From the NCBI GenBank assembly GCA_964535805.1, contig CAZHUM010000005.1, forward strand, positions 1-58,768: 58,768 nucleotides of DNA, written 5' to 3'. Every line of letters starts with the position of its first letter. Positions within the stretch are counted from its first letter, which is position 1. This stretch comes from an uncultured Thermoplasmata archaeon (GTDB lineage: Archaea > Thermoplasmatota > Thermoplasmata > Halarchaeoplasmatales > Halarchaeoplasmataceae). Below the pieces are notes generated by a model. The model did not search any database. It was given only the letters and a program-made list of their open reading frames with translations, and was not told the DNA's origin. This document shows positions 10,152 to 53,036 of the stretch, in pieces. The translations under genes were made by a program, and so were the position numbers.

Positions 10152-10167
10152 ATTTAGACGGTGCATA

Positions 10168-13047: not shown

Positions 13048-13048
13048 G

Positions 13049-39057: not shown

Positions 39058-39588
39058 TCACTTGTTCTTTTGTACTAGCTCTACACCCTTTTTCAACGCG
39101 TCCATGTTCAATTCGATGAATCTACTCGGTACGCTGTCCTTAACGGAGTTCTGAAGAGACACCTCTGGTACCAGGTCAGCAGCTTCGTTGAATCCGCCCA
39201 GCATGACTATGTTGGCAACGATCTTGTTGCCCAGGTCTTCAGCCATCTTGGTCGCCGGGATCTCGATGGCACCTTCGAAATCGTAGTTAACCACCAAATC
39301 GGGGTCTAGAATGACAACTGAATCTTCAGTTAGATCTCCGTGGTACTTGTCCCAAGCGGGCTGACTCATCACCATCATGTACTCCGTGGTCGGCAGCCCG
39401 CAGTAACCTATCTCCCTGTCCGATATGATGACTTCTGATCTAGCTGCTCCACCCCTAGCCTCGGGTCCGTAGCTCTGCATCTGCACGGCGTTGTAGTCGT
39501 GGAAAACCGATGCTGCTTTTCCCAGTATATAGCCGGCGGTCATGATCCCCTGGCCACCGCTCCCGCACAATCTAGCGTTCTTCCTCAT
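39058..39588 (-). CDS. korG: 2-oxoacid:ferredoxin oxidoreductase gamma subunit
   Basis: GSGGQG, SYGPEARGG, NIVMLG. Confidence 0.92.
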   Translation of the reverse strand: MRKNARLCGSGGQGIMTAGYILGKAASVFHDYNAVQMQSYGPEARGGAARSEVIISDREIGYCGLPTTEYMMVMSQPAWDKYHGDLTEDSVVILDPDLVVNYDFEGAIEIPATKMAEDLGNKIVANIVMLGGFNEAADLVPEVSLQNSVKDSVPSRFIELNMDALKKGVELVQKNK

Positions 39589-40457
39589 CCTATAGCCTCC
39601 ATAAGTTCTTCATACCTTTCATCCAGCGATTTCTTCCTAACGTTATGGAGTACACCTACCTTGATCTTGTCTTTAACCTCTTCTTTCTCATCGTCACTAC
39701 CGTACTTCATTATCATGTCGTAGTCCTCTTTGAGTATGGTGGTCTCCTTGTAGAAGTTCCAAAGGTCCTTGATCTCTCTGAATTTATTCCTTCTTCCGTA
39801 TGCTGTTGTACAGGGTGACATCATCTCTATAAGGCTGAATCCCTTGTTCTGTAGGCCCTCTTGAATAGAGTTGATCGGCTGGTTCGGTCGATTAACAGGC
39901 CATCTTGCCACATATGAAGCACCGGCTGCGATGGCCATACTGCTAATATCGAATGGCGGTTCGATACATCCGTAGGGTGCGGTTGTAGCAAAATCACCTT
40001 CTGGCGTCGTCGGAGCAACCTGCCCTCCGGTCATACCGTATATGAAATTATTGACAGCAATCACCGTGATATCTATATTCCTTCTTACCGCATGGATAAA
40101 GTGGTTACCACCTATACCGATACAGTCACCGTCTCCGGTGAATACGACGACGTTTAGATCTGGATTTGTTACTTTGACTCCGGTTGCAAACGCTAGTGCC
40201 CTGCCGTGAGTGGTATGGAGGGCATCGACTTTGACATATCCAGGTATCCTAGAAGAACATCCTATTCCGGATAGGAACACTGTATTGTCCATATCGAGCC
40301 CTTCTTTTTCTATCGCCCAAAGAGTGTAATCCAATACATTACCTAGACCGCAACCGTTGCAGAATATGTGCGGCATCATCTCCTTTCTCAAGTATTTCTC
40401 TCTGATCTTTTCACCGCTAGCTACGTCCACATTCTTTGCTTTATCCTCTGATACCAT
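39585..40457 (-). CDS. korB: 2-oxoacid:ferredoxin oxidoreductase beta subunit
   Basis: FCNGCG, GIGCS, HGRA, GDGD...NN TPP motif, YGMTGGQ. Confidence 0.94.
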   Translation of the reverse strand: MVSEDKAKNVDVASGEKIREKYLRKEMMPHIFCNGCGLGNVLDYTLWAIEKEGLDMDNTVFLSGIGCSSRIPGYVKVDALHTTHGRALAFATGVKVTNPDLNVVVFTGDGDCIGIGGNHFIHAVRRNIDITVIAVNNFIYGMTGGQVAPTTPEGDFATTAPYGCIEPPFDISSMAIAAGASYVARWPVNRPNQPINSIQEGLQNKGFSLIEMMSPCTTAYGRRNKFREIKDLWNFYKETTILKEDYDMIMKYGSDDEKEEVKDKIKVGVLHNVRKKSLDERYEELMEAIG

Positions 40458-40458
40458 C

Positions 40459-41622
40459 CTAGATCACCTCCAAGATCTCGTCGGGTCTGTGTAGTTCTCC
40501 ACCTATCTTACCTGCTAGTACTACTTCGCATTCAGCGTACTCGTTCACTTTGTGGTACATCTGACCCAGGTTCATCTCAGCCACGACTATCTTATCGACC
40601 TTGCGTGAAAGCTCTTCCACCGCCTTAATCGGGAACGGCCATAGTGTTTTCAGTCTAAAATAACCGACCTTCTTGCCCCTTTTTCTGGCTAGGTTAACTG
40701 CACCCAATGCACTCCTGCTGGCTATGCCGTATGAGAGTATAGCAACATCGGCGTCATCGATGTTCCTCTCTTCTATATCTGTGAGTGTTTCTCTATCATC
40801 CGTTACCTTCTCTACCTGCCTTCGAATCAGTTTATCATGGTCTTCCTGGTCATCCGTCGCCGGGAATCCGTGCTCGTCGTGTGTGAGTCCCGTAACATAG
40901 GTCTTGTACCCCGTCCCAAAAGGTGCGAACTCAGGTACTTTTTCTTTACCGTATCGACCCTTGCCGAAGGGAACATAATCCTCTGGACCCACCTTCGGTT
41001 TCTTCCTGTAGAATAGATCAACCTCGTCGGGTATCTCTATCATCTCTCTCATGTGCCCTAAGTCGGCACTGATATACAAGAAAACCGGGGTCCTGTACTC
41101 CTCTGCAAGATTGAAACTTTTGATGGTGAGCTCCACTGTCTCTTGGATCGTGTTGGGTGAAAGCACGATGGGGTGATAATCTCCGTGGGAACCGTATCGT
41201 CCCTGCATCACGTCGCCCTGTGCACCCAACGTGGGCTGTCCCGTGGACGGTCCCGATCTTTGCACGTTAGCTACGACAACCGGTGTTTCGCTCATTGCGG
41301 CGAATCCTATGTTCTCCTGCATGAGGGAAAATCCGGGTCCGCTGGTAGCGGTCATGGCTTTTGCACCGGTCCATGAAGATCCGATGATCGATGCCATACT
41401 CGCCAGCTCGTCCTCCATCTGGATGTATTTACCACCCACTTTAGGCAGTAATCTAGCCATCATCTCTGCTATCTCAGACGCTGGTGTTATAGGATAACCT
41501 CCGAAGAAGTTGCACCCCGCAAGAAGAGCACCGTAGCAAACGGCTGCATCTCCGTGGATGAACTGCCTCTTGGCACCAAGTGCTTTCTTTACTCTCTCTA
41601 AGTCAAAATCTTCTTCATTCAT
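40459..41622 (-). CDS. korA: 2-oxoacid:ferredoxin oxidoreductase alpha subunit (2-oxoglutarate-type likely)
   Basis: GYPITPASE, QMEDE, TATSGPGFSLMQE, QRSGPSTGQPT. Confidence 0.94.
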   Translation of the reverse strand: MNEEDFDLERVKKALGAKRQFIHGDAAVCYGALLAGCNFFGGYPITPASEIAEMMARLLPKVGGKYIQMEDELASMASIIGSSWTGAKAMTATSGPGFSLMQENIGFAAMSETPVVVANVQRSGPSTGQPTLGAQGDVMQGRYGSHGDYHPIVLSPNTIQETVELTIKSFNLAEEYRTPVFLYISADLGHMREMIEIPDEVDLFYRKKPKVGPEDYVPFGKGRYGKEKVPEFAPFGTGYKTYVTGLTHDEHGFPATDDQEDHDKLIRRQVEKVTDDRETLTDIEERNIDDADVAILSYGIASRSALGAVNLARKRGKKVGYFRLKTLWPFPIKAVEELSRKVDKIVVAEMNLGQMYHKVNEYAECEVVLAGKIGGELHRPDEILEVI

Positions 41623-41821
41623 CTTCTTCCTCCACGACGGTGATGGCAAAATCAGGACATATCAATTCGCAAAGTCTGCAGTTGTTGCATCTATCTTCGA
41701 TCTCCACCGGTTGATGAACACCTTTTTTGTTCAGTTCCTCGCTCTCTTCCAGCGCATCACGGGGGCAGAATAATATGCACAGGTTGCATCCTTTGCAGTA
41801 GTCCTCGTTAACTTCGATCAT
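41615..41821 (-). CDS. korD: 2-oxoacid:ferredoxin oxidoreductase delta subunit (2[4Fe-4S])
   Basis: CKGCNLCILFCP and CNNCRLCELICPDFAI. Confidence 0.92.
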   Translation of the reverse strand: MIEVNEDYCKGCNLCILFCPRDALEESEELNKKGVHQPVEIEDRCNNCRLCELICPDFAITVVEEEDE

Positions 41822-41832
41822 CAGAGTCCACC

Positions 41833-43485
41833 CTACAGGGTCACCTCTACGTCGAGATGCCTCTCTAGTACCTTCTTCCCTCTGTACTCAGGAATAAGCA
41901 TCGGTGATTCTCTATCGGTTTCGATACCGTTCTTCTTCATCTCATTTTCGTAGTCAGTGATATGATCCATGGTCAATTTACCCACCTTGGCTTTTCTAGC
42001 ATGCTTCGCCGCTGCTATACCGGCTCTTCTTCCGAACACGTTGTAATCCAAGAGCGAGTTTCCCATGAGCCTGTTCTTTCCGTGAACACCACCTTCTACC
42101 TCTCCACCGGCGAACAATCCGGCTACGGGCGTTGATGCGTCCTCATTGATTATAAGACCGCCGTTCTGATAGTGCAGTGTCGGGAACACCAATATCGGGT
42201 CTTTCGTCATGTCGATACCGAACCTCTCGTACTGCCTTACCATGGCGGGTAGCCTTTCAGCTATCGTGCCCTCACCCTTGATCTCGTCGATAAGCGGGGC
42301 GTCCAGCCATACGCCTTTCATCCCGGTAGGGGTCTCGATACCGTTGTCCCTGCCGTAGCACTCCCTTATTATCGCTGCGGCTTCGATGTCTCTTGGCTCG
42401 AGTGGGTTGACGAACAACTCACCGTCTTTGTTAACCGGTTGTCCACCGAGGCTTCTGACCTTCTCGGTCACAAGCAGGCCGACTATCTGATCTGGATAAG
42501 CGGCACCTGTCGGGTGGTACTGAACGCTGTCCATATCCGTGAGCGGGACTCCAGCTTTGTATCCCATTATCAGCCCGTCTCCCGTAGCTCCATAATGATT
42601 GGTTGTCGGGTATGATTGTATATGCAATCTTCCGAATCCACCGGTAGCCATGATGGTCGATTTCGCTCTCACGATGTAGTACTCGTTGGTCTCCAAGTTC
42701 ATCAAAATCGCACCGGCGACTTGACCTTTATCGTCCTTGAGAAGCTCGACCGCCGGAGTGAACTCTAGCACGGGTACATCGAGATTTCTAGATTCATCTC
42801 TCAGCACCCTCATCAGCTCCATTCCGGTGTAATCTCTTGCCGAGTGTAACCTGTATCTAGAAGTACCTCCACCTGGTAGCTCAACGAACTCTCCGTCTTC
42901 GTCCCTATCGTACATGATCCCCAGTTCCTCGTGCCATTCGATGAGTTTAGGGGCGTCCATGGTCAGTGCTTTGACCAGTTCGGGAACGTTGGTGAAGTGT
43001 CCACCACCTATAGCGTCCAGGTAGTGCTTGACCGGTGAATCGTCTGCTTTATCTGCTGCCTGTATTCCTCCCTGGGCCATCATGCTGTTGGAATCGCCGT
43101 GCCTCAATTTCGTAGCTATAAGTATTTCCTGGGGATCGATCCCTTCCTCGATAGCCCATAGGGCGGAAACCGTACCGGCTCCACCTCCACCTATGATCAG
43201 TATATCAACGTCATAATCGATCTGTGAGAGGTCGATCTCGGAGGGATCTATCAAGCTGTGTGCTTCCAGTAGATCGACTAATTCAGTGGGTCCAACTTCG
43301 CCCTTGCTGGGTCCGATATTGATATCTCTCTTCCCCTCTTCTCTGTAATCGGGGTGGAAGTTGTTAAGCGTCTCGTCCCCCTGCTCGGATGTCATCCTCT
43401 CGAATGTTTTATCTGCTCTTTCGGAACGTGTCTCTTCGACCCTTTCGATGGATTTTCTCATATATTCTGGATAACCGTCAGCCAT
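41833..43485 (-). CDS. frdA: Fumarate reductase/succinate dehydrogenase-family flavoprotein (TfrA/FrdA-like)
   Basis: GGGGAG, AQGG, QYHPT, PRD, HYQNGG, HGKNRLMGNSL catalytic motifs. Confidence 0.88.
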   Translation of the reverse strand: MADGYPEYMRKSIERVEETRSERADKTFERMTSEQGDETLNNFHPDYREEGKRDINIGPSKGEVGPTELVDLLEAHSLIDPSEIDLSQIDYDVDILIIGGGGAGTVSALWAIEEGIDPQEILIATKLRHGDSNSMMAQGGIQAADKADDSPVKHYLDAIGGGHFTNVPELVKALTMDAPKLIEWHEELGIMYDRDEDGEFVELPGGGTSRYRLHSARDYTGMELMRVLRDESRNLDVPVLEFTPAVELLKDDKGQVAGAILMNLETNEYYIVRAKSTIMATGGFGRLHIQSYPTTNHYGATGDGLIMGYKAGVPLTDMDSVQYHPTGAAYPDQIVGLLVTEKVRSLGGQPVNKDGELFVNPLEPRDIEAAAIIRECYGRDNGIETPTGMKGVWLDAPLIDEIKGEGTIAERLPAMVRQYERFGIDMTKDPILVFPTLHYQNGGLIINEDASTPVAGLFAGGEVEGGVHGKNRLMGNSLLDYNVFGRRAGIAAAKHARKAKVGKLTMDHITDYENEMKKNGIETDRESPMLIPEYRGKKVLERHLDVEVTL

Positions 43486-43490
43486 ATCAA

Positions 43491-44207
43491 TCACTCCTTT
43501 TCGAAATCTCTCTCTTCATACGTCTTCCTCAATTCCTCTTCGCTCATATCGAGAAGTTTCTTTAATTCAACATCGTACTTGCCCTCCTCGATCTCTTTAA
43601 CCCTCATATCGAGTTCCTCACTGTCTTCGTCGATGTATTTACCAGTGATCCTCCTGGCAAGCTGGGCGAGATGATAGTGTTTTATGTCCGCTGGACATCT
43701 TATAGAACATAAACCGCATTGGATGCAGTCGAACGAAAGGTCGGCGCACCTTTCTATATCTCCACGCAGTGCAGCTTGAACGTAATCCATGACTTCGATA
43801 TCCTGGGGGCATGCCTTCGTGCACGTGTTGCAGGAAACACATCTAGCGATCTCTGGATAGTACTCCAGCATCACGTTGTCTCTTTTCTCTGGATTCACTT
43901 CATCGATATCGTATTCTTCCCGGGCACCGGGTACGAAGGGAAGTTGGACCAAGAACATACCGTCCTTGACCGCCGTTTGACACGCCAGGTCCATCTTCAA
44001 CTTGTACTCGTCCTCGAGTCTGTAAATCGTAGCGCAGGCACCGCAGAAACCTCCCCGGCATCCACAACCTCGTACGTACTTGTATCCAGCGTACTCGAGT
44101 GCCGTCATGATGGTGAGTCCTTCGGGCACTTTGTACCTCTTACCCATGACGTATATATCGATTAATTTTACTTCCTCTTCCTTCTTTTTCTCTTCATCTT
44201 CAGGCAT
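43491..44207 (-). CDS. frdB: Fumarate reductase Fe-S subunit (FrdB/TfrB N-terminal-like)
   Basis: CRGGFCGAC...LACQ [2Fe-2S]; CVSCNTCTKACP; CIQCGLCSIRCP. Confidence 0.85.
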   Translation of the reverse strand: MPEDEEKKKEEEVKLIDIYVMGKRYKVPEGLTIMTALEYAGYKYVRGCGCRGGFCGACATIYRLEDEYKLKMDLACQTAVKDGMFLVQLPFVPGAREEYDIDEVNPEKRDNVMLEYYPEIARCVSCNTCTKACPQDIEVMDYVQAALRGDIERCADLSFDCIQCGLCSIRCPADIKHYHLAQLARRITGKYIDEDSEELDMRVKEIEEGKYDVELKKLLDMSEEELRKTYEERDFEKE

Positions 44208-44214
44208 ACCAATC

Positions 44215-45066
44215 TCACTCCAAAATATCCTTATCCTTTAGTAATTTTTTCGGGTCGATCTTATGTTTCTTCATCTCTACATCCAATCCAAATGAGAGGG
44301 CTATCAGTTCGGTTAAGTAAAATACGGGTATCTCGAAATCCGTTGCCCTCTGGTGAAAGTCAAGGTTGAACTGGCACAACGGGCACGACAGCGCTATCGC
44401 TTCGGCACCGTCCTCCACCGCTCTACCCACGATATCTTTCACCCTCTTCTCTACGATATCGCTCCTATTCACCGTGTGATAAGAACCGCAGCACTCCGTT
44501 CTCTTTGGGTTGTCGATCACCTGTGCACCCGTGCACTCCAACAGTTCCTCCATTATATGGGGATCTTCGGTGTCGTCGATCGCGGCGATATCGGGCCTCA
44601 AAAGCATACAGCCGTAATAGGGTGCTACTTTCAGGTTGTCCAGGTGCACCTTGACCCTTTTCTTGATCTCGTCCTTCATCTCGATGAGTACTTGGAAAAT
44701 ATGTTTCACGTCCACGTTACCTTCGTAATCCGGATCATCGGTCAAAAACTCGTTCATGGTCTCCAGGTCATCGGGTATCTCCTTCATCCTCTCGTTGGCC
44801 TGCTTGAGCACGTTGTAACACATGTCACAAAGGGTGACGATCTCTTCCTCCCCCTGCTCCTGTGCGCAGCACATGGTCCTTATCGGAGCGATCTGGTGCA
44901 TGATATCATCGGTGGTCAACGATTGAACTGCTCCACAGCAGTACCAGTTATCCATCTCGACCAGCGGTTTGCCAAGGGCTTCCATGACCGCCATGGCGCT
45001 CTGTTCGTAATCGCTGGCCTTTGTTTTAAGCGTACATCCTGGATAGTAAAGTAAAGCGTCCTCCAT
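44215..45066 (-). CDS. hdrB: Heterodisulfide reductase subunit B-like (two CCG domains)
   Basis: YYPGC, CCGA, CDMC, YYGC, CCGS, CPLCQFNLD. Confidence 0.9.
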   Translation of the reverse strand: MEDALLYYPGCTLKTKASDYEQSAMAVMEALGKPLVEMDNWYCCGAVQSLTTDDIMHQIAPIRTMCCAQEQGEEEIVTLCDMCYNVLKQANERMKEIPDDLETMNEFLTDDPDYEGNVDVKHIFQVLIEMKDEIKKRVKVHLDNLKVAPYYGCMLLRPDIAAIDDTEDPHIMEELLECTGAQVIDNPKRTECCGSYHTVNRSDIVEKRVKDIVGRAVEDGAEAIALSCPLCQFNLDFHQRATDFEIPVFYLTELIALSFGLDVEMKKHKIDPKKLLKDKDILE

Positions 45067-45070
45067 GATA

Positions 45071-45457
45071 TCACCCCGTCTCCTTCCTGAAACAGCCCAC
45101 CACTGCGAGCTGAGGCAGTTCATCCATATTCTCAACGTGGTCGACGTCGACCATATCGATGTTCTCTCTAAGCATGATCTGTCTAACGGCTTCCATGATC
45201 TTGGCGATGTCTATATCCCTCGGGCATCTTACGCTGCACGTAAAACACGCTGCACATATCCACATGGTGTTCTTCTCCAGTATCCCCTTCTTGTCCCCGA
45301 GAACGATCTTCTTGAATATCCTCTCCGGAAGGACGTCCATCTCCTTGACGAAGGGGCAGCCCGCCGAGCACGTACCGCATCTTATGCAGGCGTTCACCGA
45401 TTCCCCGGAAAGTTCTTCCACTTTTTCAAGAAAATCTAAGTCTCTTTTCACCTTCAT
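45071..45457 (-). CDS. hdrC: Heterodisulfide reductase subunit C-like
   Basis: CIRCGTCSAGCP; WICAACFTCSVRCPRDID. Confidence 0.9.
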   Translation of the reverse strand: MKVKRDLDFLEKVEELSGESVNACIRCGTCSAGCPFVKEMDVLPERIFKKIVLGDKKGILEKNTMWICAACFTCSVRCPRDIDIAKIMEAVRQIMLRENIDMVDVDHVENMDELPQLAVVGCFRKETG

Positions 45458-46917
45458 CGATCATCACCCATACCCTGTGAAAGTTCCTTGTATATCTTTC
45501 CCTCATCATCGTACATATCGATCTTCAACGGTGTATCTCCCATGGCGGAGTGTGTAGCACAAGCAAGGCACGGGTCGTATGCTCTGAAAGCCCTCTCCAC
45601 GCTGTTCAGCATGCCCGGCTGTATGTTCCCAGCATCCACGTACTTCTTAGCGGCATCACGTATGCTCATGGAAATAGGTGCTGCGTTGTGAACTGTCGCC
45701 ACGATCAGATTCAAGTCCTCTATCAGACCGTTTTCATCGAGCTCGTAATCGTGTATGAGGGTGCCTCTTGCCGCTTCGACGATGCCTACACCCTTTCCAG
45801 GTGTTCCAACTTCGCTCCTTATGTTCTCGCTCTCCAGGTCCTCGTCGTTCGCCAACATCTTAACCAATTCTGCGGACTGCATCACCTCGATGAGTCTAGC
45901 CCAGTGATACGCAAGTGTAGAGTGAACCGGATAACCCAGTGTATCGTACATCTCGTCGAACTCCTCCTGAGCAAGCGGTGTTTTCATGCCCTCGGATGCG
46001 TTCAATCTGCCCAAGGGACCGACACGATAAACACCTGAGTCCATACCTTCTTCGAACCCCTTCCATCCAACCTCTTTGAGATATGGGAACTTCATATAAC
46101 TGTAGGGCTCTACGTGCTCTCTGATAACGTCCATGTAGTCTATGTTCTTGAAAGAGACGAAATCTTTTCCTTCAGGGTCGACGACGTTGACTATTCCACC
46201 GGTGTGACTCACCTTCTTATCCTCCGTTAAACCCATACTGTATATGTTGAGTGAATCTTCAACGATGGGCTTCTCGTATTCCTTGAGCACCTTTTCTTTG
46301 AAAAGGTCCAATGTGAACTTGGAGAACTCTACCATACCCTCTGCCATCTCTTGAACTTCCTTTCTTTCCTCGGTGGTCAAGTGCTTGACTACGCCTCCCG
46401 GCACCGCGAAAGAGGGATGGACCGCCTTTCCTCCGAGCATCCTGATGATCTTCTGTCCGTTACCCCTCTGTCGGATCACTTTTTTACTGATCTCCAGGCC
46501 GACCTTTTCGATGACCCCCAAGATGTTCCTCGCATTCCGGGGTGCATCCACGCCTACCAGGAAATCCGGACTCGCTAGATAGTAGAAGTGAAGAAGATGG
46601 TCCGCATAGATGTATCCGTTGTAGAACAGCTCTCTCAGTTTCTTTGCGGGTACCGTGGGTTCCACGTCGTAGGCGCTGTCCAGCGCTTTAGCCGATGCCA
46701 AGTGATGCGCCACCGGGCATACACCACATATCCTGCTGGTTATCGTCGGCATGTCCTCCGCCCTTCTGCCCTGACAGAACTTTTCGAATCCTTTGAATTC
46801 GGGTACCTGCAGGTAGGCGTTCTTCACGTTCTTCTCATCGTCCAAAAATATCTCTATCTTGCCGTGACCTTCCAGTCTGGTTATGGGATCTATGGAGATC
46901 TTATTATCATCACTCAT
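45454..46917 (-). CDS. mvhA: Group 3c [NiFe]-hydrogenase large subunit
   Basis: PITRLEGHG, RICGVCPVAH, EAARGTLIH, RAYDPCLACATH plus cleavable C-terminal tail. Confidence 0.94.
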   Translation of the reverse strand: MSDDNKISIDPITRLEGHGKIEIFLDDEKNVKNAYLQVPEFKGFEKFCQGRRAEDMPTITSRICGVCPVAHHLASAKALDSAYDVEPTVPAKKLRELFYNGYIYADHLLHFYYLASPDFLVGVDAPRNARNILGVIEKVGLEISKKVIRQRGNGQKIIRMLGGKAVHPSFAVPGGVVKHLTTEERKEVQEMAEGMVEFSKFTLDLFKEKVLKEYEKPIVEDSLNIYSMGLTEDKKVSHTGGIVNVVDPEGKDFVSFKNIDYMDVIREHVEPYSYMKFPYLKEVGWKGFEEGMDSGVYRVGPLGRLNASEGMKTPLAQEEFDEMYDTLGYPVHSTLAYHWARLIEVMQSAELVKMLANDEDLESENIRSEVGTPGKGVGIVEAARGTLIHDYELDENGLIEDLNLIVATVHNAAPISMSIRDAAKKYVDAGNIQPGMLNSVERAFRAYDPCLACATHSAMGDTPLKIDMYDDEGKIYKELSQGMGDDR

Positions 46918-47887
46918 CTGGATCACCCCTCTTGTATTTCAGCAGGCTGCTGGGTAGGCTGAACCTGTAAAAGGAACCCGTGGGATCCCTCACGGAATCG
47001 ATGGCTTTCTTTATCTCCTCTTCCGTTTTCCTTGTCTCGCCTTCGATACTTATGACCGAAGCCAGTGCCGAGAGCATCCTTCCGCCTTGGTCCAAAGCTT
47101 CTCTCGTAGGACCGTTGCATCCGATACACGGATGGCCCACCTTGGTGCATGCACCATCGCAGTTACCCGCTGTGGCAGGACCCATGCAAAGAATACCTTG
47201 GTCGAGAAGGCATCTTTCCGGATCGATGTCCGTTTTTTCCTGGATAGGTACCAGCTTCTCGATCTTTTTCTCTTCTCTTTCCATGGGACATACATCGCAG
47301 ACACTTTTCTCCGATATGAAATCGTATTTGCCGACTTCAATATCGTCATCCAGCAGTGCTGGAAAAGCTTCCTCGAGTTGTACTGGAAGCGGCGGGCAGC
47401 CCGGGATGTAGTAATCGACTTCGATGATGTCGTGTAAAGGAACGATATGATGCAGCAGTTCCGGCAGCTCCAGTTCGCCTTCCTCCACTTTGCTGATCTT
47501 TTGAGGAACGGTGCCTTCATCGGTGGATTTCGTATGGTAAGCTTCATCCAACAATTCTTGCTTTGAGTACATGTTACCCAGACCGAAAAGACCACCCAGA
47601 GTCGAGCAGGAACCGTAGGCAACGACGTTCTTCGCTTTTTTTCTCAACAATTTTACGAGTTCCCTGTTCTCCTCCGATCTCATCGCACCGTTGATGAAGA
47701 TAAAGTCCATCTCGTCGTCTTCCATGGCCTCTACATCTTCATATTTCGGGTCCATCGCGCAGGGCCAGAAAACGATGTCCGCTATCTCAACGACATCCAA
47801 AATCATCTCATCGATATCTAGAACACTCACTTCACAACCACCACAGGCACCGCACCAATAAAATCCGATCTTCTTTTTATCGCTCAT
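46910..47887 (-). CDS. mvhG: [NiFe]-hydrogenase small subunit
   Basis: CGACGGC, GSCS, PGCPP, CLLDQGILCMGPAT...C...CIGCNGP. Confidence 0.93.
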   Translation of the reverse strand: MSDKKKIGFYWCGACGGCEVSVLDIDEMILDVVEIADIVFWPCAMDPKYEDVEAMEDDEMDFIFINGAMRSEENRELVKLLRKKAKNVVAYGSCSTLGGLFGLGNMYSKQELLDEAYHTKSTDEGTVPQKISKVEEGELELPELLHHIVPLHDIIEVDYYIPGCPPLPVQLEEAFPALLDDDIEVGKYDFISEKSVCDVCPMEREEKKIEKLVPIQEKTDIDPERCLLDQGILCMGPATAGNCDGACTKVGHPCIGCNGPTREALDQGGRMLSALASVISIEGETRKTEEEIKKAIDSVRDPTGSFYRFSLPSSLLKYKRGDPDE

Positions 47888-48309
47888 AATTCTTCCTCCT
47901 TGAAATCCAGGGGACCTAATTCTCTGATCTCCTCCGTCATATCAGTCATAACCTTGGCGAACTTCCCCCCCTCTGCAGAAGATATCCAGTCCAGCCTCAG
48001 CCTTTTAGCGTTCAACCCCATGTCCTTCATCATCTTCTGCATGAGATCGAATTTCCTTATGGTCTTGTAATTTCCATCTATGTAATGGCAGTCTCCGGGG
48101 TGACATCCCGCTATGAGCACTCCGTCAGCACCTTCTTTGAACGATTGGAACACGTGCTCCGGTGAAACTCTGGAAGAGCACATGACCTTGATGTTGAGGA
48201 TGTTCGGAGGATACTGCTCTCGGCTCACACCTGCAAGGTCCGCACCCGCGTAACTACACCAATTGCATAGAAAGGCGATTATCTTAGGTTCGAATTCTTC
48301 AGCCATCAT
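47884..48309 (-). CDS. mvhD: Hydrogenase [2Fe-2S] delta subunit
   Basis: FLCNWCSYAGAD, VMCSSRV, GCHPGDCHY; ATGA overlap with the hdrA stop. Confidence 0.95.
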   Translation of the reverse strand: MMAEEFEPKIIAFLCNWCSYAGADLAGVSREQYPPNILNIKVMCSSRVSPEHVFQSFKEGADGVLIAGCHPGDCHYIDGNYKTIRKFDLMQKMMKDMGLNAKRLRLDWISSAEGGKFAKVMTDMTEEIRELGPLDFKEEEL

Positions 48310-51300
48310 ACCACCTCGTCCTTCATGAGTGCGGCTTTGATCATAGCGGATATCATGTCCTCTTCGAAGCCTTTCTGGTCTATAGCCCCGGTTGGACATA
48401 CGCTTGCGCAGGAACCGCATCCTTTACAGAGTACTTTGTTGATAACTGCGATGCCTTCCTCTTCGTCGTGGTCGATGGCTCCGTAGGGGCAGACGGAGAT
48501 ACACATCTTACAGCCGCTGCATATATCCTCATTCACTACAGATATTATACCTTCGCTCTTGGTGTACCCCCTCATCATGGGTATCGCCGCCTTGGAAGCC
48601 GCGCCTTCACCCTGAGATATGGTGTCCGCTACGTTCTTGGGATAATGGGCACCACCGGCGAGGTATACTCCCTCGGAAGGGAATTCTAGTGGTCTGAGTT
48701 TTGCGTGGGCTTCCATGTAGAAACCCGCTGGGTCCGAAGAGATCTTGAGCATCTTTTTTAGTTTACCGGCGCTGCTGTCTCCCTCGAGCTGCATCGCTAG
48801 AACTAGATAATCGGCGTCGATCTCCAGTTCTTCACCTAAAAGGTTGTCGTAAACTTTTATGTTCAATGAGTCGTCACCGATGGTTACTTCCGGCTTCTTT
48901 TCAGTAGAGTACCTCAGGAATATCACGCCGTCCTCTTCGGATACATCCATGTAGTACTCTTCTTCCTTCTTACCGAAGACCCTCATATCTTTGTACATTA
49001 TATAAACGTTGGATCTAGGATATCTTTGTTTCATAGCTTTGGCGTTCTTCAGGGAGTTGCCGCATCCCACACGGCAGCACCAAGGCCTGTCTTCTTCCAT
49101 GGCACCGACGCAGTTGATGAACACAACGTTCTCTGGATCTTCCAGTGCATCGTCAGCCAAAGCTTCGTCCAATTCGAGCTGGGTCATGATCCTGTCGGAA
49201 TCTTTGTAACCGTAGAACCCATCCGGTTCTATCTCCTGGAAACCGGTAGCCATGACGATGGTATCAACTTCGATCTCCTCGCCGTTAACGGTTACCGCGT
49301 AGTTGCCTATGTAGCCCTCTACATCCTCGACTTCCGCGGAGGTGAGGATATCTACATTTTCATTGTCTCTAAGTTGATGTTCAAGGTTATGGATGAACTC
49401 TTGAGAATCTATATCTGAAGGGAACAGCGTGTTCAACCTGTTGAGCTTGCCACCGAGTTTATCTTCCCTTTCCACCAAGGTCACTCTCTGACCCGAATTC
49501 GCCAAGCTCAACCCGGTCTGCATACCGGCTGGTCCACCACCGATGATCAGTGTGCGGTTACCCACTTCTATCTCCTCCTCCGTTAGAGCGGATAAGAGCT
49601 TCGCTTTTGCAACCGCCATCTTGGTTATTATCTTAGCCTTTTCCGTCGCCTTTTCCACATCGTCGCTGTGTACCCAGCTGCATTGATTCCTGATGTTAGC
49701 CATCTCGAAAAGATACCTGTTCAGCCCCGCTTCTTCGAGGGTGTCCTTGAACAGCTCGCCGTGGGTCCTCGGTGAGCACGCTGAAACTACGATCCTGTTA
49801 AGGTTGTGCTCTTCGATGGCTTCCTTCATGATCGTCTGTGCGTCCTCGGAACAAGCGAACATGGTGTCATCGACGTAAACAACTCCCGGTATATCTCTAA
49901 CCGCTTCGCTGACGCTTTCTACGTCCACGTATTTGGAGATGTTCTTACCGCAGTGACAAACGAAGACACCGATCCTAGGTTCTTCACCGGTCACGTCCCT
50001 CTCTTCTGGTTTCTCCGGTCTCCCCTTTCTTTTTCTATCCTTGATCGGCTGTAGAGCTCTCGCCGCGGCACCGCTGGCCTGTGCTACGCTGTCGGGAATA
50101 TCCTTGGGTGACTGGGCACAGCCCGCAAGGTAGATACCGTCTTTAGTGGAATCCATGGGCGCCGTGAGTAAATCTTTTGATTTGAAGAAACCGTTTTCAT
50201 CCAGTTCTATATCGAGTATGTCCGCTAACTTGTAATTACCTTGAGATGGAACGATAGCCGACGAGAGAACGACCATATCTACGCAGTCAGTCCTTACCTC
50301 TCCCTCCTCCGTGTTCTCGTACTCGATCGCCATCTTTCCGTCGTGTGTTTTGTACACCCTCGACGGTCTTCCCCTGATGTAATTGACCCCCTTTTCTTTC
50401 GCCTTGTCGTAGTACTGTTGAAAATCTTTGCCGTAGGCTCTAAGATCCATATAATATATATATGTGTCAAGGTCGGGATTTTCCCCCTTGCTTATCGAAG
50501 CCTCTTTCGTCGCGTACATACAACAAACACGTGAACAGTAGGGCATCCCCTTCTGCTTGCATCGTGAACCTACACACTGTATCCAAGCCACGGATCCCGG
50601 TTCCTTCCCGTCGGAGGGCTTCATTATCTTACCTCCGGTCGGCCCGGAAGCTGAAAGAAGCCGCTCGTACTCCATGGCGGTCAGTACGTTGTCGTATTCC
50701 CCGTAGCCGTACTCCTCTCTCCACTCGTCGGGTTCCATCATCTGATAGCCCGTAGCTACTACGATACTTCCGACCTTGATCTCTATCTCCTGAGAAGATT
50801 CCAGGAAGTTGATCGCCCCGGCGTCGCAGACCCTTTCACATGCGCCGCAGCCGACACAATTCTCGTAGTCGATAGTGTAAGTCAGAGGAACCGATTGTGG
50901 ATATTCTACGTATATCGCCTTCCTGGAAGAGAGCTCCTCGTCGAACTCGTTGGGGACCTCGACGGGGCACGATTCCTCGCAGTCGGCACATCCAGTACAG
51001 ATATCCGGATCTACATATTTCGTTCTTTTCCAAACCTTTACGTCAAAACCGCCTGAGCTGCCGATGACTTCCTTGACCTCAGAATAAGTCAACAAATCGA
51101 TATTAGGATGTCTGCTCGTCTCCACCATCTTGGGTGCCGAGATGCAGATAGAACAATCATTGGTCGGAAAGGTCTTATCCAATTTGACCATATTCCCACC
51201 TATGCTTGGTGATTTATCCACCAAGACGACCTCATACCCTTTGTCAGCAAGGTCAAGGGCAGTCTGAACACCAGAGATACCACCGCCGATAATTAATACA

Positions 51301-51311
51301 TCTTTTTTCAT
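48306..51311 (-). CDS. hdrA: Large tandem HdrA-like flavoprotein (about 1000 aa, two FAD modules)
   Basis: GGGISG...LDKTFPTNDCSIC, CSRVCCMYATK; internal RIGVFVCHCG, CSPRTH, NIRNQCSWVH, GGGPAG; C-terminal 2[4Fe-4S]; start moved to ATG 51311. Confidence 0.93.
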   Translation of the reverse strand: MKKDVLIIGGGISGVQTALDLADKGYEVVLVDKSPSIGGNMVKLDKTFPTNDCSICISAPKMVETSRHPNIDLLTYSEVKEVIGSSGGFDVKVWKRTKYVDPDICTGCADCEESCPVEVPNEFDEELSSRKAIYVEYPQSVPLTYTIDYENCVGCGACERVCDAGAINFLESSQEIEIKVGSIVVATGYQMMEPDEWREEYGYGEYDNVLTAMEYERLLSASGPTGGKIMKPSDGKEPGSVAWIQCVGSRCKQKGMPYCSRVCCMYATKEASISKGENPDLDTYIYYMDLRAYGKDFQQYYDKAKEKGVNYIRGRPSRVYKTHDGKMAIEYENTEEGEVRTDCVDMVVLSSAIVPSQGNYKLADILDIELDENGFFKSKDLLTAPMDSTKDGIYLAGCAQSPKDIPDSVAQASGAAARALQPIKDRKRKGRPEKPEERDVTGEEPRIGVFVCHCGKNISKYVDVESVSEAVRDIPGVVYVDDTMFACSEDAQTIMKEAIEEHNLNRIVVSACSPRTHGELFKDTLEEAGLNRYLFEMANIRNQCSWVHSDDVEKATEKAKIITKMAVAKAKLLSALTEEEIEVGNRTLIIGGGPAGMQTGLSLANSGQRVTLVEREDKLGGKLNRLNTLFPSDIDSQEFIHNLEHQLRDNENVDILTSAEVEDVEGYIGNYAVTVNGEEIEVDTIVMATGFQEIEPDGFYGYKDSDRIMTQLELDEALADDALEDPENVVFINCVGAMEEDRPWCCRVGCGNSLKNAKAMKQRYPRSNVYIMYKDMRVFGKKEEEYYMDVSEEDGVIFLRYSTEKKPEVTIGDDSLNIKVYDNLLGEELEIDADYLVLAMQLEGDSSAGKLKKMLKISSDPAGFYMEAHAKLRPLEFPSEGVYLAGGAHYPKNVADTISQGEGAASKAAIPMMRGYTKSEGIISVVNEDICSGCKMCISVCPYGAIDHDEEEGIAVINKVLCKGCGSCASVCPTGAIDQKGFEEDMISAMIKAALMKDEVV

Positions 51312-51336
51312 GATGAGCCAACCATGTTTGATGGTT

Positions 51337-51560
51337 TTCCCCTCGCGGGGAATGTTGGAATAACAAGGGGGATATAATACCTTCGGTTTGCTTTCCAATA
51401 TTAATCCGGGGATTCCAACACTGCGGGGAGAACGTTGTTAGATATGTTATTTAATCTTTTTCTTTTTTATTGGAAATATACACAGATATAATTACAATGT
51501 AAAATTATATATTAACAATCATTAACCCCGGAATCAACACAGAAATTCTTTATATCCGAC
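51337..51560. promoter_or_regulatory. Divergent promoter region hdrA/fumA with repeated TRTTGGAA boxes
   Basis: TGTTGGAA 51353, TTCCAATA 51393, TTCCAACA 51413, TATTGGAA 51468; AT-rich TATA-like tracts. Confidence 0.55.
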
Positions 51561-51585
51561 CCCTTAATCCGCCGATGCTGATAAC

Positions 51586-52452
51586 ATGAATCAAGATGAG
51601 CTTGAAGATAAGCTTGTAGAAGCGATAAGATTGGCGGTTACAAGGACAACTCCCGAGACAGAGAAAGCGCTGAGAGATGCACTTAAGGAGGAAGAAGAAT
51701 CCGGACCCAAGGTGCAGCTGGAAGCCATATTGGAGAACATCGATGTTGGAAAGGAAGAGAGCAGACCGATATGCCAGGACACTGGGACCCCTACTTTCTT
51801 CGTCGAGGTGGGGGATGAGTTCGGGGAAATCGGAAAGTTAGAGGATATAATAACGAAAGCAGTGAGAAGGGCGACGGAAGAGGTCCCTCTGAGACCCAAT
51901 GCCATAGATCCTTTGGAAGACAAGAACAGCGGCGACAACACGGGTAGATCCATCCCGGCTGTACATTGGGAGATCGTCGAAGGCAGCGGAGTCAAGATAA
52001 CCGCCATGCCCAAGGGAGGCGGCAGCGAGAACATGAGTAAACTGGTCATGATGACTCCCGGAAGGGGATTGAAAGGTGTCAAAGAGATAGTGCTCGAGCA
52101 CGTGGCTGCCATGGCGGGCAAACCCTGTCCACCGACCACCTTGGCTGTCGGTATAGGAGGAGGAGCGGATCTAGCACTTGAATTGGCGAAGAAGGCACTT
52201 CTGAGACCCGTCGGCGAGCATCATCCAGAAGAAAAAGTTGCCCAACTCGAAAGGGAGCTGAAAGACAAGATCAACCAGCTCGGAGTCGGGCCCATGGGGA
52301 TCGGAGGTAAAACCACCGTCCTCGACGTCAAGATCGAGTACGCCCACAGACACCCGGCGTCCTTCCCTGTTGCCATAGTACCTCAGTGCTGGGCGAACAG
52401 ACAGGCGACGGTGATCGTAGATGCCCATGGCAACGTGGAGGTGGAACAATGA
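51586..52452 (+). CDS. fumA: Fe-S fumarate hydratase (class I) alpha subunit
   Basis: PICQDTG, PLRPN, KGGGSEN, PCPP, GPMGIGG, QCWA. Confidence 0.93.
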   Translation: MNQDELEDKLVEAIRLAVTRTTPETEKALRDALKEEEESGPKVQLEAILENIDVGKEESRPICQDTGTPTFFVEVGDEFGEIGKLEDIITKAVRRATEEVPLRPNAIDPLEDKNSGDNTGRSIPAVHWEIVEGSGVKITAMPKGGGSENMSKLVMMTPGRGLKGVKEIVLEHVAAMAGKPCPPTTLAVGIGGGADLALELAKKALLRPVGEHHPEEKVAQLERELKDKINQLGVGPMGIGGKTTVLDVKIEYAHRHPASFPVAIVPQCWANRQATVIVDAHGNVEVEQ

Positions 52453-53036
52453 AGAAAGTGATTACGACACCGATAGATCCTGAAGAGGTAAAGAAGCTGA
52501 AAGTGGGCGATGCGTTCTACATAACCGGCACGATATTCACCGCAAGAGATTCCGCTCACGAACTTTTCTTGGAGATGGACAAGGGAGAGGTTCCCTTCGA
52601 CCCGTCTAAGTACGCCATGTTCCACTGCGGTCCGGCGATACACAAGGTAGACGGAAAGTGGGAAGTGGTTTCTGCAGGACCAACCACCAGCATACGCATG
52701 GAGATATTCGAGGACGATTTCATCGAGAAGTTCGGCACCAAGATCATCATCGGTAAAGGCGGAATGGCGGATAGGACTTTGAAGGCACTTGGAAAGCATG
52801 GAGCCGTTTATGTACAGTACACCGGAGGAGCCGGGGCCCTGATGGCGAATGCGATCGAGGAAGTGGAAGACGTGTACTTCCTCGAAGAGCTCGGTATACC
52901 GGAAGCATTCTGGATGTTCAGAGTCAAAGAAGCCGGTCCATTCCTGGTGACCATGGACTCACACGGCAGCAGCATCCACGACGACGTGGACAAAGAAGTA
53001 CAGAAGAACTTAGAAAGGCTGAAGTCGGAACTTTAA
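52449..53036 (+). CDS. fumB: Fe-S fumarate hydratase beta subunit
   Basis: TARDSAH, HCGP, GPTTSIRM, IGKGG, MDSHG; ATGA overlap with the alpha subunit. Confidence 0.93.
   Translation: MKKVITTPIDPEEVKKLKVGDAFYITGTIFTARDSAHELFLEMDKGEVPFDPSKYAMFHCGPAIHKVDGKWEVVSAGPTTSIRMEIFEDDFIEKFGTKIIIGKGGMADRTLKALGKHGAVYVQYTGGAGALMANAIEEVEDVYFLEELGIPEAFWMFRVKEAGPFLVTMDSHGSSIHDDVDKEVQKNLERLKSEL

Follow-up and report, generated by a model that had tools for sequence, protein, structure and literature searches.

The window analyzed here is a 58,768-nt stretch of DNA from an uncultured Thermoplasmata archaeon (contig CAZHUM010000005.1 of GenBank assembly GCA_964535805.1), and all coordinates are positions of that whole stretch. 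On its minus strand, at 39058-51311, the window carries an operon of 12 genes in which a hydrogenase and heterodisulfide reductase set of the Mvh-Hdr type is joined to a two-subunit soluble fumarate reductase (frdBA) and a four-subunit 2-oxoacid:ferredoxin oxidoreductase (kor). We somewhat favor a reading in which this operon would encode an H2-driven, HdrA-based, electron-bifurcating fumarate reductase that delivers reduced ferredoxin to Kor or to Rnf. Comparative sequence data give strong support to a functional link between HdrA/MvhD, HdrCB, FrdBA and Kor, because the synteny spans both archaea and bacteria and because the electron donors have been swapped around a constant hdrCB-frdBA. What we infer is that the proteins form a physical complex, that this complex bifurcates electrons, in which direction it runs and what Kor acts on.

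MvhADG-HdrABC is routinely found in uncultured anaerobes that lack coenzyme M (CoM) and coenzyme B (CoB), with its acceptor left open. A soluble fumarate reductase behind HdrB would be a concrete candidate acceptor for one class of Hdr complexes. If this is correct, fumarate could be reduced in an energy-conserving or ferredoxin-generating manner without quinones, cytochromes or membranes, and it would become clear how H2 or NAD(P)H can furnish the reductive branch leading to 2-oxoglutarate with electrons of low potential. The exchange of Mvh, Flx and GltD-like donors, together with a fused and asymmetric HdrA, also bears on the mechanism of bifurcation by HdrA. Several carriers belong, by their record titles, to groups with cultivated members, which brings the prediction within reach of experiment.

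Proposed electron route

In the proposed mechanism, electrons from H2 would enter through the [NiFe] hydrogenase MvhAG and pass via MvhD to the flavin of a fused HdrA, where the electron pair would be split by flavin-based bifurcation. The high-potential electron would move through a short HdrC, the CCG-domain protein HdrB and FrdB to the non-covalent flavin adenine dinucleotide (FAD) of FrdA, where fumarate would be reduced to succinate; fumarate would thus take the place of the CoM-S-S-CoB of methanogens. The low-potential electron would leave through the ferredoxin domains of HdrA to ferredoxin. Reduced ferredoxin could drive the reductive carboxylation of succinyl-CoA by Kor, on the reductive branch to 2-oxoglutarate, or alternatively could be used by Rnf for ion pumping and energy conservation, and FumAB would serve as the source of fumarate. 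One ferredoxin would be produced per fumarate reduced, which equals the need of Kor per succinyl-CoA carboxylated, and this matching 1:1 stoichiometry may explain the linkage to kor. The heterodisulfide of methanogens has a potential of about -140 mV. The fumarate/succinate couple, with an E0' of +33 mV, is more positive, and H2-driven bifurcation to ferredoxin would therefore be feasible.

Organization of the operon

ORF (open reading frame) maps and family scans place 12 co-oriented genes on the minus strand in the order hdrA-mvhD-mvhG-mvhA-hdrC-hdrB-frdB-frdA-korD-korA-korB-korG, with a spacing between neighbors of -17 to +11 nt. This arrangement is confirmed and lies far beyond chance. The first gene, hdrA (48306-51311), encodes a fused tandem HdrA of 1001 amino acids that begins at the ATG of MKKDVLIIGGG, an upstream TTG not being the true start. 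It is followed by mvhD (47884-48309), a member of the FlpD family (Pfam FlpD, 1.7e-53) that encodes the [2Fe-2S] connector between hydrogenase and HdrA and overlaps both hdrA and mvhG by 4 nt. The hydrogenase itself is encoded by mvhG (46910-47887; small subunit, Pfam Oxidored_q6) and mvhA (45454-46926; large subunit, Pfam NiFeSe_Hases). Next come an hdrC-like gene (45071-45457) for a protein of 128 amino acids with two [4Fe-4S] motifs (Pfam Fer4_8/Fer4_17) and an hdrB-like gene (44215-45066) for a protein of 283 amino acids with two CCG domains, Pfam CCG being matched twice. The frdB-like gene (43491-44207; Pfam Fer2_4, Fer2 and Fer4 families) encodes an iron-sulfur subunit, and the frdA-like gene (41833-43494; Pfam FAD_binding_2) a flavoprotein. 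The operon closes with all four subunits of Kor, delta-alpha-beta-gamma: korD (41615-41821), a ferredoxin of 68 amino acids with two [4Fe-4S] clusters assigned from its ORF and its two CxxCxxCxxxCP motifs, and visible only in the short-ORF listing (minimum of 20 amino acids); korA (40459-41622; NCBIfam PRK08659); korB (39585-40457; thiamine pyrophosphate-binding, NCBIfam 2-oxoglutarate:ferredoxin oxidoreductase beta); and korG (39058-39588; NCBIfam PRK08537). A convergent gene lies 10 nt beyond the downstream end.

On the other side of hdrA, an AT-rich divergent intergenic region of 274 nt (51312-51585; 28% G+C, against about 45-50% in the flanks) separates the operon from fumA (51586-52452) and fumB (52449-53036), which are on the plus strand and encode a two-subunit class I fumarate hydratase. 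Both proteins score above NCBIfam cut-offs (TIGR00722, 367.5 bits against a cut-off of 100.65; NF004885, 339.9 against 276; TIGR00723, 195.8 against 145.15). None of the 12 operon proteins contains a 19-residue segment above 1.6 on the Kyte-Doolittle scale, as a membrane anchor of the FrdC/D type would, and the operon holds no additional ORF that could encode a hydrophobic anchor subunit. Inside the operon, promoter-like sites number 15, against 14.6 +/- 3.1 in shuffled sequences (scored with a bacterial sigma-70-type consensus that is ill-suited to archaea), and terminator-like sites number 10, against 9.4 +/- 3.7.

These results bear on an initial annotation made from the DNA letters alone. 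It had described 12 co-oriented and tightly packed genes, the lack of an FrdC/D anchor and a divergent fumAB pair, all of which were borne out. Its naming of the parts was right for the 12 genes and wrong in treating them as canonical forms, given that HdrA is a fused tandem, HdrC is short and FrdA is atypical. It had also taken the cluster for a local merger of separate systems, and here it was mistaken: the synteny search that it proposed found a widespread conserved module, in which the hdr-frd-kor set recurs across archaea and bacteria among the best 80 loci.

Conservation across archaea and bacteria

A full-length FrdA orthologue with at least 58% identity is present in 27 of 41 related genomes (the genome of the window, G000, included), and within the window's own family 22 of 24 other genomes have an orthologue, which in one case is partial. 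The 16 loci retrieved from relatives all retain frdB-frdA, and all retain hdr-type genes; in 13 of them frdB is immediately preceded by hdrC-hdrB, and one locus (L018) has only hdrA and mvhD, with neither hdrB nor hdrC. A scan of one genome per species confirmed the FrdA family in at least 584 stretches (584 of 593 among the matches listed). Locus statistics were compiled from the best 80 loci among the matches listed, which have 58-93% FrdA identity, and from the 36 of these that are fully flanked, with at least 8 kb upstream and at least 3 kb downstream.

Counted from record titles, 49 of the 80 loci are archaeal and 31 bacterial. The archaeal titles name Thermoplasmata, Theionarchaea, Methanofastidiosum, Bathyarchaeia, a metagenome-assembled genome (MAG) of Korarchaeota-type Thermoproteota, Culexarchaeum, and Heimdall-, Thor- and Borrarchaeota. 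The bacterial titles name Bipolaricaulota/Acetothermia, Chloroflexaceae/Oscillochloris, Anaerolineae, Thermotogae-labelled MAGs, Fraserbacteria, WOR-3, Aerophobetes, Spirochaetota, Aminicenantes, Eubacteriales and Acidobacteriota. One record titled as a Spirochaetaceae bacterium (L031), a 5.8-kb contig, carries mvhA-hdrCB-frdBA-korDA with 68-88% protein identity to the archaeal family of the window (80% for frdA) and is most likely a mis-binned archaeal contig.

The composition of these loci supports a functional link. The frdB gene lies directly upstream of frdA in 77 of the 80 loci (35 of the 36 fully flanked ones), hdrB occurs anywhere in the locus in 64 (34 of 36) and lies directly upstream of frdB in 50 (24 of 36). 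An hdrA gene is found in 57 loci (34 of 36), hdrA and hdrB together in 53 (33 of 36), and mvhD in 47 (30 of 36). The kor genes are present in 43 loci (25 of 36), mvhA in 34 (18 of 36) and fum in 14 (8 of 36). In some lineages kor lies upstream of hdrA and in others downstream of frdA; because its position differs between lineages, the kor linkage appears to have outlasted rearrangement.

Additional evidence came from the genes that supply electrons. In sampled loci that lack mvhGA, other genes fill the slot between mvhD and hdrC/frdB. In one Chloroflexaceae locus and two Eubacteriales loci the slot encodes three proteins, of which one combines the domains NAD_binding_1, FAD_binding_6 and DHODB_Fe-S, another is of the Fer4_22 type and the third is an iron-sulfur protein resembling FrhB; we take this set to be the make-up of FlxABC. 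In another locus (L013), an HdrA of 1105 amino acids is fused with a Fer4_20 and Pyr_redox_2 module of the GltD/NfnB type. In a FastTree phylogeny of 85 family flavoproteins, whose branching should be read qualitatively only, Mvh-linked and non-Mvh loci interleave. These data point to repeated exchange of putative donor modules around a constant HdrA / HdrCB / FrdBA core.

In the same tree, the sister group of the window's clade (L029-L039) comes from Bipolaricaulota and Thermotogae-labelled MAGs (L044, L045, L050, L051) and not from other Thermoplasmata, which suggests that the cluster may have been transferred between domains. Additional CCG proteins are encoded beside the cluster in other lineages: LutA/LutB-like genes (CCG; LUD and Fer4) follow frdA in L013 (11582-13645), and a protein of 648 amino acids with four CCG stretches is encoded after mvhD in L049 (14199-16145).

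The flavoprotein and its iron-sulfur partner

FrdA has 553 amino acids when read from a GTG start and 550 when read from the ATG at 43485, as in most database homologues. It matches Pfam FAD_binding_2 at residues 97-481 and has no Succ_DH_flav_C domain. Its best NCBIfam match is TfrA (NF004900), with 342.4 bits against a cut-off of 718 over model positions 6-427 of 546; TfrA scores above the SdhA/FrdA and NadB models, every one of which is below its cut-off. Catalytic residues were located by alignment to E. coli FrdA and SdhA, and conservation was measured over 85 family sequences. The residues for dicarboxylate binding and proton transfer, which align to E. coli FrdA His232, Thr244, Glu245, Arg287, His355 and Arg390, are invariant in 85 of 85. 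The position of the His that carries covalent FAD is Asn in all 85, and the FAD of FrdA is predicted to be non-covalent.

The architecture of the family is also distinctive. About 96 residues precede the FAD fold and about 50 follow position 503, as compared with 2-14 residues before and 130-167 after in seven ordinary relatives. A circular permutation, in which the N-terminal extension would be the relocated C-terminal domain of SdhA, was considered and rejected, with a profile-profile probability of 0.5% when 85 N-terminal pieces were compared with 47 ordinary C-terminal domains. In a library clustered at 50% identity, the family is represented by a single sequence at 61%, the next relatives lie at 44-47%, and SdhA- or NadB-like proteins at 33-43%.

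The initial annotation had raised the prospect that the flavoprotein would group with NadB. That it is an L-aspartate oxidase, or a reductase of another unsaturated acid, seems to us extremely unlikely. Such an assignment would fit a protein that is the only full-length FAD_binding_2 protein of the genome, that scores 258 bits with NadB models, not far under its 342 with TfrA, that shares with NadB the catalytic residues, and that departs from the usual architecture in its N-terminal extension and its missing C-terminal domain. NadB was nevertheless rejected. The score with TIGR00551 is 258.5 bits against a cut-off of 452.75, and a gene for an SdhB/TfrB-like iron-sulfur partner is adjacent in 77 of the 80 loci. 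Moreover, fumAB is adjacent in the window, fum occurs in 14 of the 80 loci, and NadB would be dispensable because the genome encodes an aspartate dehydrogenase and two NadA proteins.

The partner subunit FrdB carries an SdhB-type [2Fe-2S] motif and two CxxCxxCxxxCP motifs, and no CCG domain. Its 4+4+4 Cys are invariant in 32 sequences, and the second of the two four-Cys motifs presumably occupies the site of the 3Fe-4S motif in classical SdhB. NCBIfam returns weak matches only, to the N-terminus of TfrB and to dhsB. Among 16 longer relatives of FrdB there are nine FlxA-FrdB fusions and three FrdB-FrdA fusions. The nine FlxA-like NAD(P)H/FAD/[2Fe-2S]-FrdB proteins (P0271-P0278 and P0281; 485-548 amino acids) are either true fusions or the product of read-through of overlapping genes; in P0274, a residue-level check showed that the FrdB part starts exactly at the end of the FlxA-like part. 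A fusion of this kind would place FrdB and the donor subunit in one polypeptide.

Hydrogenase and heterodisulfide reductase subunits

MvhA contains RICGVCPVAHH and DPCLACATH, which we take to be its Ni-Fe binding motifs. The best NCBIfam matches of the hydrogenase subunits are VhuG for MvhG (209 bits, cut-off 450) and VhuA for MvhA (405 bits, cut-off 800), both below cut-off. The short HdrC scores 72 bits with the NCBIfam HdrC model (cut-off 160), and its eight Cys are invariant in 32 sequences; orthologues in 56 loci have 118-144 amino acids, as compared with 214 in the canonical paralogue of the same genome. HdrB matches SdhE best (146.6 bits, cut-off 500) and then HdrB (142.7 bits, cut-off 345). 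All 32 sequences compared share its ten Cys without exception, these Cys line up with those of solved HdrB chains, and both CCG motifs are complete. Longer proteins were also inspected for fused forms of HdrB; none was found among them, which is weak evidence.

The HdrA of the operon differs from the canonical protein, which has about 650 amino acids and is a homodimer in solved complexes. It scores 1051.8 bits with NCBIfam HdrA2 (cut-off 1100) and aligns with solved HdrA in the PDB in three stretches, residues 5-419 to 154-568, 436-596 to 3-163 and 815-996 to 475-654. Module boundaries were drawn by comparison with the canonical HdrA of the same genome (663 amino acids) and with PDB chains. 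Module 1 consists of the FAD domain with its inserted ferredoxin domain; the N-terminal domain and the C-terminal ferredoxin domain are missing from it. Module 2 combines the N-terminal domain with a second FAD domain, which has no inserted ferredoxin, and with the C-terminal ferredoxin domain. The protein resembles two unequal HdrA copies that are covalently joined and share a single set of accessory domains, a putative "one-and-a-half" HdrA.

The canonical HdrA belongs to a second Mvh-Hdr locus on another contig of the same genome (C14; L109 1482-13390), with hdrC (214 amino acids), hdrB, hdrA (663 amino acids) and mvhDGA. The paralogues of the window and of C14 are 29% identical for HdrB, 28% for HdrC and 61% for MvhA, and the HdrB of the window is 41-51% identical to Frd-linked HdrB of other phyla. 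The presence of a separate canonical set, together with these low identities, argues that the Hdr set of the operon is specialized, rather than a general Hdr that lies near frd by chance. On C14, hdrCBA comes directly after genes for thiolase, 3-hydroxyacyl-CoA dehydrogenase and enoyl-CoA hydratase and before one for acyl-CoA synthetase, and this Hdr could be linked to acyl-CoA metabolism. The mvhA, mvhG and mvhD genes of C14 are on the opposite strand, and a gene for a pyridine nucleotide-disulfide oxidoreductase of 446 amino acids is divergent from mvhD.

Fumarate or a thiol couple as possible partner of HdrB

The host genome (G000) has 2.15 Mb in 131 contigs and is rated 95% complete. There is no match to McrA, to ComA (CoM synthesis) or to DsrC in this 95%-complete genome, in which CoB biosynthesis was not looked for. 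The initial annotation had supposed a non-methanogenic host and had named mcr and the CoM and CoB pathways, as well as succinyl-CoA synthetase, as points to be checked; the absence of McrA and ComA matches agrees with that supposition, with CoB aside, and succinyl-CoA synthetase (SucC) is present.

A rather improbable alternative to direct electron transfer is that HdrC, HdrB, FrdB and FrdA act jointly as a split thiol:fumarate reductase analogous to TfrAB, with Mvh-Hdr re-reducing the disulfide at the expense of H2 and a soluble thiol couple linking the two. FrdB, HdrC and HdrB jointly cover the TfrB model (residues 18-82, 129-224 and 265-485 of NF004898, respectively), and TfrA is the best NCBIfam match of FrdA. 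The methanogen CCG motifs of HdrABC form disulfide-reducing clusters, and both motifs are complete in HdrB here. The second, canonical Mvh-Hdr of the genome could reduce a disulfide, and one locus (L040) has hdrCB-frdBA without hdrA or mvh nearby. The Methanofastidiosum lineage uses CoM and CoB, and the cluster also occurs in a Methanofastidiosum MAG (L046). Against this stand the missing ComA, McrA and DsrC matches and the weakness of the TfrB matches (E-values of 1e-9 to 7e-7). A split thiol reductase would also leave the HdrA and MvhDGA of the operon without an HdrBC of their own, and a diffusible shuttle would not require the linkage of hdrA with frdBA that is seen in 34 of the 36 fully flanked loci.

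Several points favor direct wiring from HdrB to FrdB. The operon has one HdrBC and its FrdB lacks a CCG domain, so that with a thiol shuttle one of the two, HdrA or Frd, would have no CCG protein to work with. In addition, hdrA accompanies frdBA in those 34 of 36 loci, and neither ComA nor DsrC is matched.

Proposed bifurcation and the role of Kor

In a scheme without bifurcation, which we think has a slim chance of being right, the genes would be co-regulated or their products would form a complex, acting as a plain H2:fumarate oxidoreductase (elsewhere NAD(P)H:fumarate) in which HdrA, HdrC and HdrB would be a mere wire; Kor would take its ferredoxin from the common pool. The reduction of fumarate by H2 is strongly exergonic and can proceed uncoupled, and the FlxA-FrdB fusions (nine of the 16 longer relatives) point to a short electron path between donor and Frd. 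The five-subunit Hydrogenobacter enzyme is described as NADH-dependent in the available text of PMC13147460, with ferredoxin going unmentioned there. However, HdrA with its ferredoxin domains has been kept in 34 of the 36 fully flanked loci whatever the donor, which would be costly for a wire, and kor is linked in 25 of them. The solved HdrA complexes that match are, moreover, titled as ferredoxin-reducing.

The assignment of Kor itself can be judged from its scores. KorA exceeds the cut-off of PRK08659 (538.6 bits, cut-off 411) and falls below that of the 2-oxoglutarate synthase alpha model (362.5, cut-off 579). KorB scores 274.3 bits with the 2-oxoglutarate:ferredoxin oxidoreductase beta model (cut-off 364), the best such score in the genome, its paralogue on contig C33 reaching 215.6, and KorG scores 188 bits with PRK08537 (cut-off 235). 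In the loci compared, korD is kept adjacent to frdA or korA. The other 2-oxoacid:ferredoxin oxidoreductases of the genome are Por (above cut-off), a Vor-like set, Ior (above cut-off), a two-subunit enzyme and a second Kor-type set; across contigs C33, C24, C17 and C1 (L110-L113) there are at least six genes of the alpha type.

A stronger version of the bifurcation model is, in our estimate, unlikely. In the window, Mvh, the tandem HdrA, HdrCB, FrdBA and Kor would form one supercomplex, in which KorD would hand the low-potential electron directly to Kor with no free ferredoxin, and H2 would drive fumarate reduction and succinyl-CoA carboxylation at a fixed ratio of 1:1. More widely, fumarate, reduced by this FrdAB, would be the physiological high-potential acceptor for a large class of bifurcating Hdr complexes in non-methanogens, among them Thermoplasmata, Theionarchaea, Bathyarchaeia, Heimdall-/Thorarchaeota, Bipolaricaulota and Chloroflexales, in which the literature speaks of an "unidentified heterodisulfide."

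Direction of the reaction

Four considerations favor the reductive direction: the non-covalent FAD, the +33 mV couple, the lack of a citrate synthase route and the reductive model published for Endoriftia. No match to the citrate synthase/ATP-citrate lyase family was found in the 95%-complete genome, and an oxidative route to 2-oxoglutarate is for that reason not evident.

The opposite direction amounts to confurcation during glutamate or peptide fermentation, and we give it only a small chance. Ferredoxin reduced by Kor and electrons from succinate oxidation would merge at HdrA, and Mvh would release 2 H2; carbon would continue through FumAB and malic enzyme to pyruvate. The stoichiometry fits reverse running equally well, because Kor yields one ferredoxin per succinate. 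The kor, frd and fum genes are linked, and a malic enzyme is encoded in the window (23786-25144, minus strand; 452 amino acids), which would connect pyruvate with the malate-fumarate-succinate branch. Lacking a citrate synthase match, the horseshoe pathway could also run oxidatively from imported glutamate.

Several observations argue against this direction. E. coli FrdA His44 mutants and the soluble flavocytochrome c3 fumarate reductases are reported to reduce fumarate and to oxidize succinate poorly, and by this enzymology the Asn that all 85 sequences have where covalent FAD would need a His would indicate a bias toward fumarate reduction. Ferredoxin has a potential of about -450 to -500 mV. 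The mean of the succinate (+33 mV) and ferredoxin potentials would lie far above that of H+/H2, hence extremely low H2 would be needed. The FrdA family is found together with kor also in bacteria whose titles are of the autotroph type (Chloroflexaceae, Oscillochloris), and the published Endoriftia model is reductive.

Taken against the H2-driven, bifurcating and reductive scheme as a whole, several findings call for caution. The 80 loci are not independent, 11 of them being from the family of the window itself. What is conserved at a minimum is hdrCB-frdBA: in L040 this unit stands with neither hdrA nor mvh over 8 kb upstream and 10 kb downstream, and in L104 frdBA stands by itself despite full flanks. 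From the FlxA-FrdB fusions one could as well conclude that donor electrons reach Frd directly, without bifurcation, and with both of its CCG motifs complete HdrB could have a disulfide substrate. All of the Hdr, Mvh, Tfr and Kor proteins score below NCBIfam equivalog cut-offs, apart from the match of KorA to a generic model, while FumAB scores above. With regard to the substrate of Kor, a second Kor-type set is encoded on C33, and both sets are below the equivalog cut-off. Finally, in Endoriftia, tfrAB is reported to depart from the common expression pattern of its cluster (PMC6315080 and PMC11636981).

Relationship to known systems

The operon shares its subunit families (MvhA/G, MvhD, HdrA, HdrC and HdrB) with the methanogen MvhADG-HdrABC complexes (5odc, 8rvu, 8rvv, 7bkb, 9sfi), and the proposed mechanism is the same, with electrons from H2 bifurcated to ferredoxin and to a high-potential acceptor. 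It differs in its fused tandem HdrA of 1001 amino acids and in an HdrC that is about 60 amino acids shorter; HdrB is about 35% identical to solved HdrB chains, as read off the alignment. It also differs in that frdBA begins 7 nt after hdrB, in that the proposed acceptor would be fumarate rather than heterodisulfide, and in that neither McrA nor ComA is matched.

In Methanothermobacter, TfrAB links CoM-SH and CoB-SH to fumarate, and where an organism has no citrate synthase TfrAB serves the reductive branch that leads to 2-oxoglutarate. TfrA (NF004900) is the best-scoring named family for the flavoprotein of the window, and both enzymes are soluble and without an anchor. The iron-sulfur and CCG content of TfrB (NF004898) corresponds to FrdB plus HdrC plus HdrB, which in the window is split over three genes with an extra dicluster domain. 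The scores remain well under the cut-offs (342 against 718 for TfrA; 37, 28 and 32 bits with the TfrB model, whose cut-off is 385), the flavoprotein of the window lacks the C-terminal domain, its match ending at model position 427 of 546, and the thiol substrates of TfrAB are probably absent from the host.

The Hydrogenobacter enzyme described by Miura in 2008 is said to include some subunits that resemble Hdr and GltD-type proteins, its fumarate reductase genes reportedly being scattered in the genome. Such subunits would match the L013 variant, in which HdrA is fused to a GltD-like module. As cited in PMC13147460, purification from Hydrogenobacter thermophilus yielded a soluble fumarate reductase that has five subunits and depends on NADH. 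By that description, it resembles the proposed enzyme in being soluble, in belonging to a reductive tricarboxylic acid (TCA) pathway and in having extra subunits that are not anchors, and it differs in using NADH as donor.

The closest published precedent is bacterial. In Candidatus Endoriftia, the Escarpia symbiont and Thioflavicoccus mobilis, flxABCD-hdrABC is interspersed with tfrAB and korABCD, and the authors proposed a complex that shuttles bifurcated electrons to fumarate reductase and to 2-oxoglutarate:ferredoxin oxidoreductase; most genes of the Endoriftia cluster share expression patterns (Rubin-Blum 2019, PMC6315080; Mitchell 2024, PMC11636981). A survey from 2026 repeats the idea of a link between Flx/Hdr and fumarate reductase (PMC13147460). 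The Endoriftia-type cluster and the operon have in common hdrA with an mvhD/flxD-type gene, hdrBC, a two-subunit soluble frd and a four-subunit kor. Compared by published description, theirs is driven by NADH through Flx, in bacteria with a full reductive TCA cycle and ATP-citrate lyase, whereas that of the window would be driven by H2 through Mvh, in an archaeon with no match to the citrate synthase/ATP-citrate lyase family. Flx-type variants of the window's own FrdA family occur in Chloroflexaceae and Eubacteriales MAG loci. The concept has therefore already been published for bacteria in its NADH/Flx form, and the window represents a hydrogen-driven archaeal variant. New here are the fused HdrA, a distinct and tightly conserved flavoprotein family, and interchangeable donor modules.

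A CCG subunit on a succinate dehydrogenase-like core also has precedents, in that type E succinate:quinone reductase, the SdhABE 8-methylmenaquinol:fumarate reductase and Syntrophobacter fumaroxidans FrdABEF have an HdrB-like CCG subunit on an SdhAB core in place of a heme b anchor (PMC5947623). SdhE is the top match of the HdrB of the window (146.6 bits, cut-off 500). Those enzymes are quinone-linked and membrane-associated, whereas the subunits of the window are partnered with HdrA and a hydrogenase, and their flavoprotein lacks the covalent-FAD His. Relative to the membrane-bound FrdABCD/SdhABCD, the window is without both the covalent-FAD His (Asn in 85 of 85) and the anchor subunits.

A literature search, with supplementary files outside its scope, found no archaeal Mvh-Hdr-Frd-Kor cluster and no hydrogenase-linked form. 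In a paper on Thermoprofundales (PMC6461988), the words fumarate, Mvh, heterodisulfide and succinate are all absent. The available texts of papers on Thermoplasmatota, Asgard archaea and WOR-3 handle Mvh-Hdr and fumarate reductase separately or leave the acceptor of Hdr open, and one genome paper names it, in the part available, "an unidentified heterodisulfide compound." A paper on Culexarchaeia describes, in its available text, a different, membrane-bound hydrogenase-HdrBC cluster beside SdhA.

Rnf and other genes of the window

The initial annotation had included Rnf in its scheme as an outlet for ferredoxin, and the genes for ApbE and RnfCDGEAB were located in the same window. They lie outside the operon, at 8910-15065 on the plus strand (apbE followed by rnfCDGEAB), and could be a sink for reduced ferredoxin. 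RnfC, RnfD, RnfG and RnfE exceed NCBIfam subfamily cut-offs, RnfA is 2 bits below and RnfB is below. Convergent with the rnf genes, at 15079-16410 on the minus strand, is a gene for a pyridine nucleotide-disulfide oxidoreductase of 443 amino acids with Pyr_redox_2 and dimerization domains.

Immediately after fumB, at 53064-53804 on the plus strand, is a gene for a Sir2-family deacylase, and the order fumBA-sir2 is kept elsewhere in the family (L019, L023, L024, L029 and L034). The DNA runs that contain the stretch are labelled as hypersaline mat and salt pan metagenomes. Near the start of the window, at 3233-8791 on the plus strand, a giant protein of 1852 amino acids is encoded, with NosD/right-handed beta-helix and beta-propeller (PQQ_2-type) repeats.

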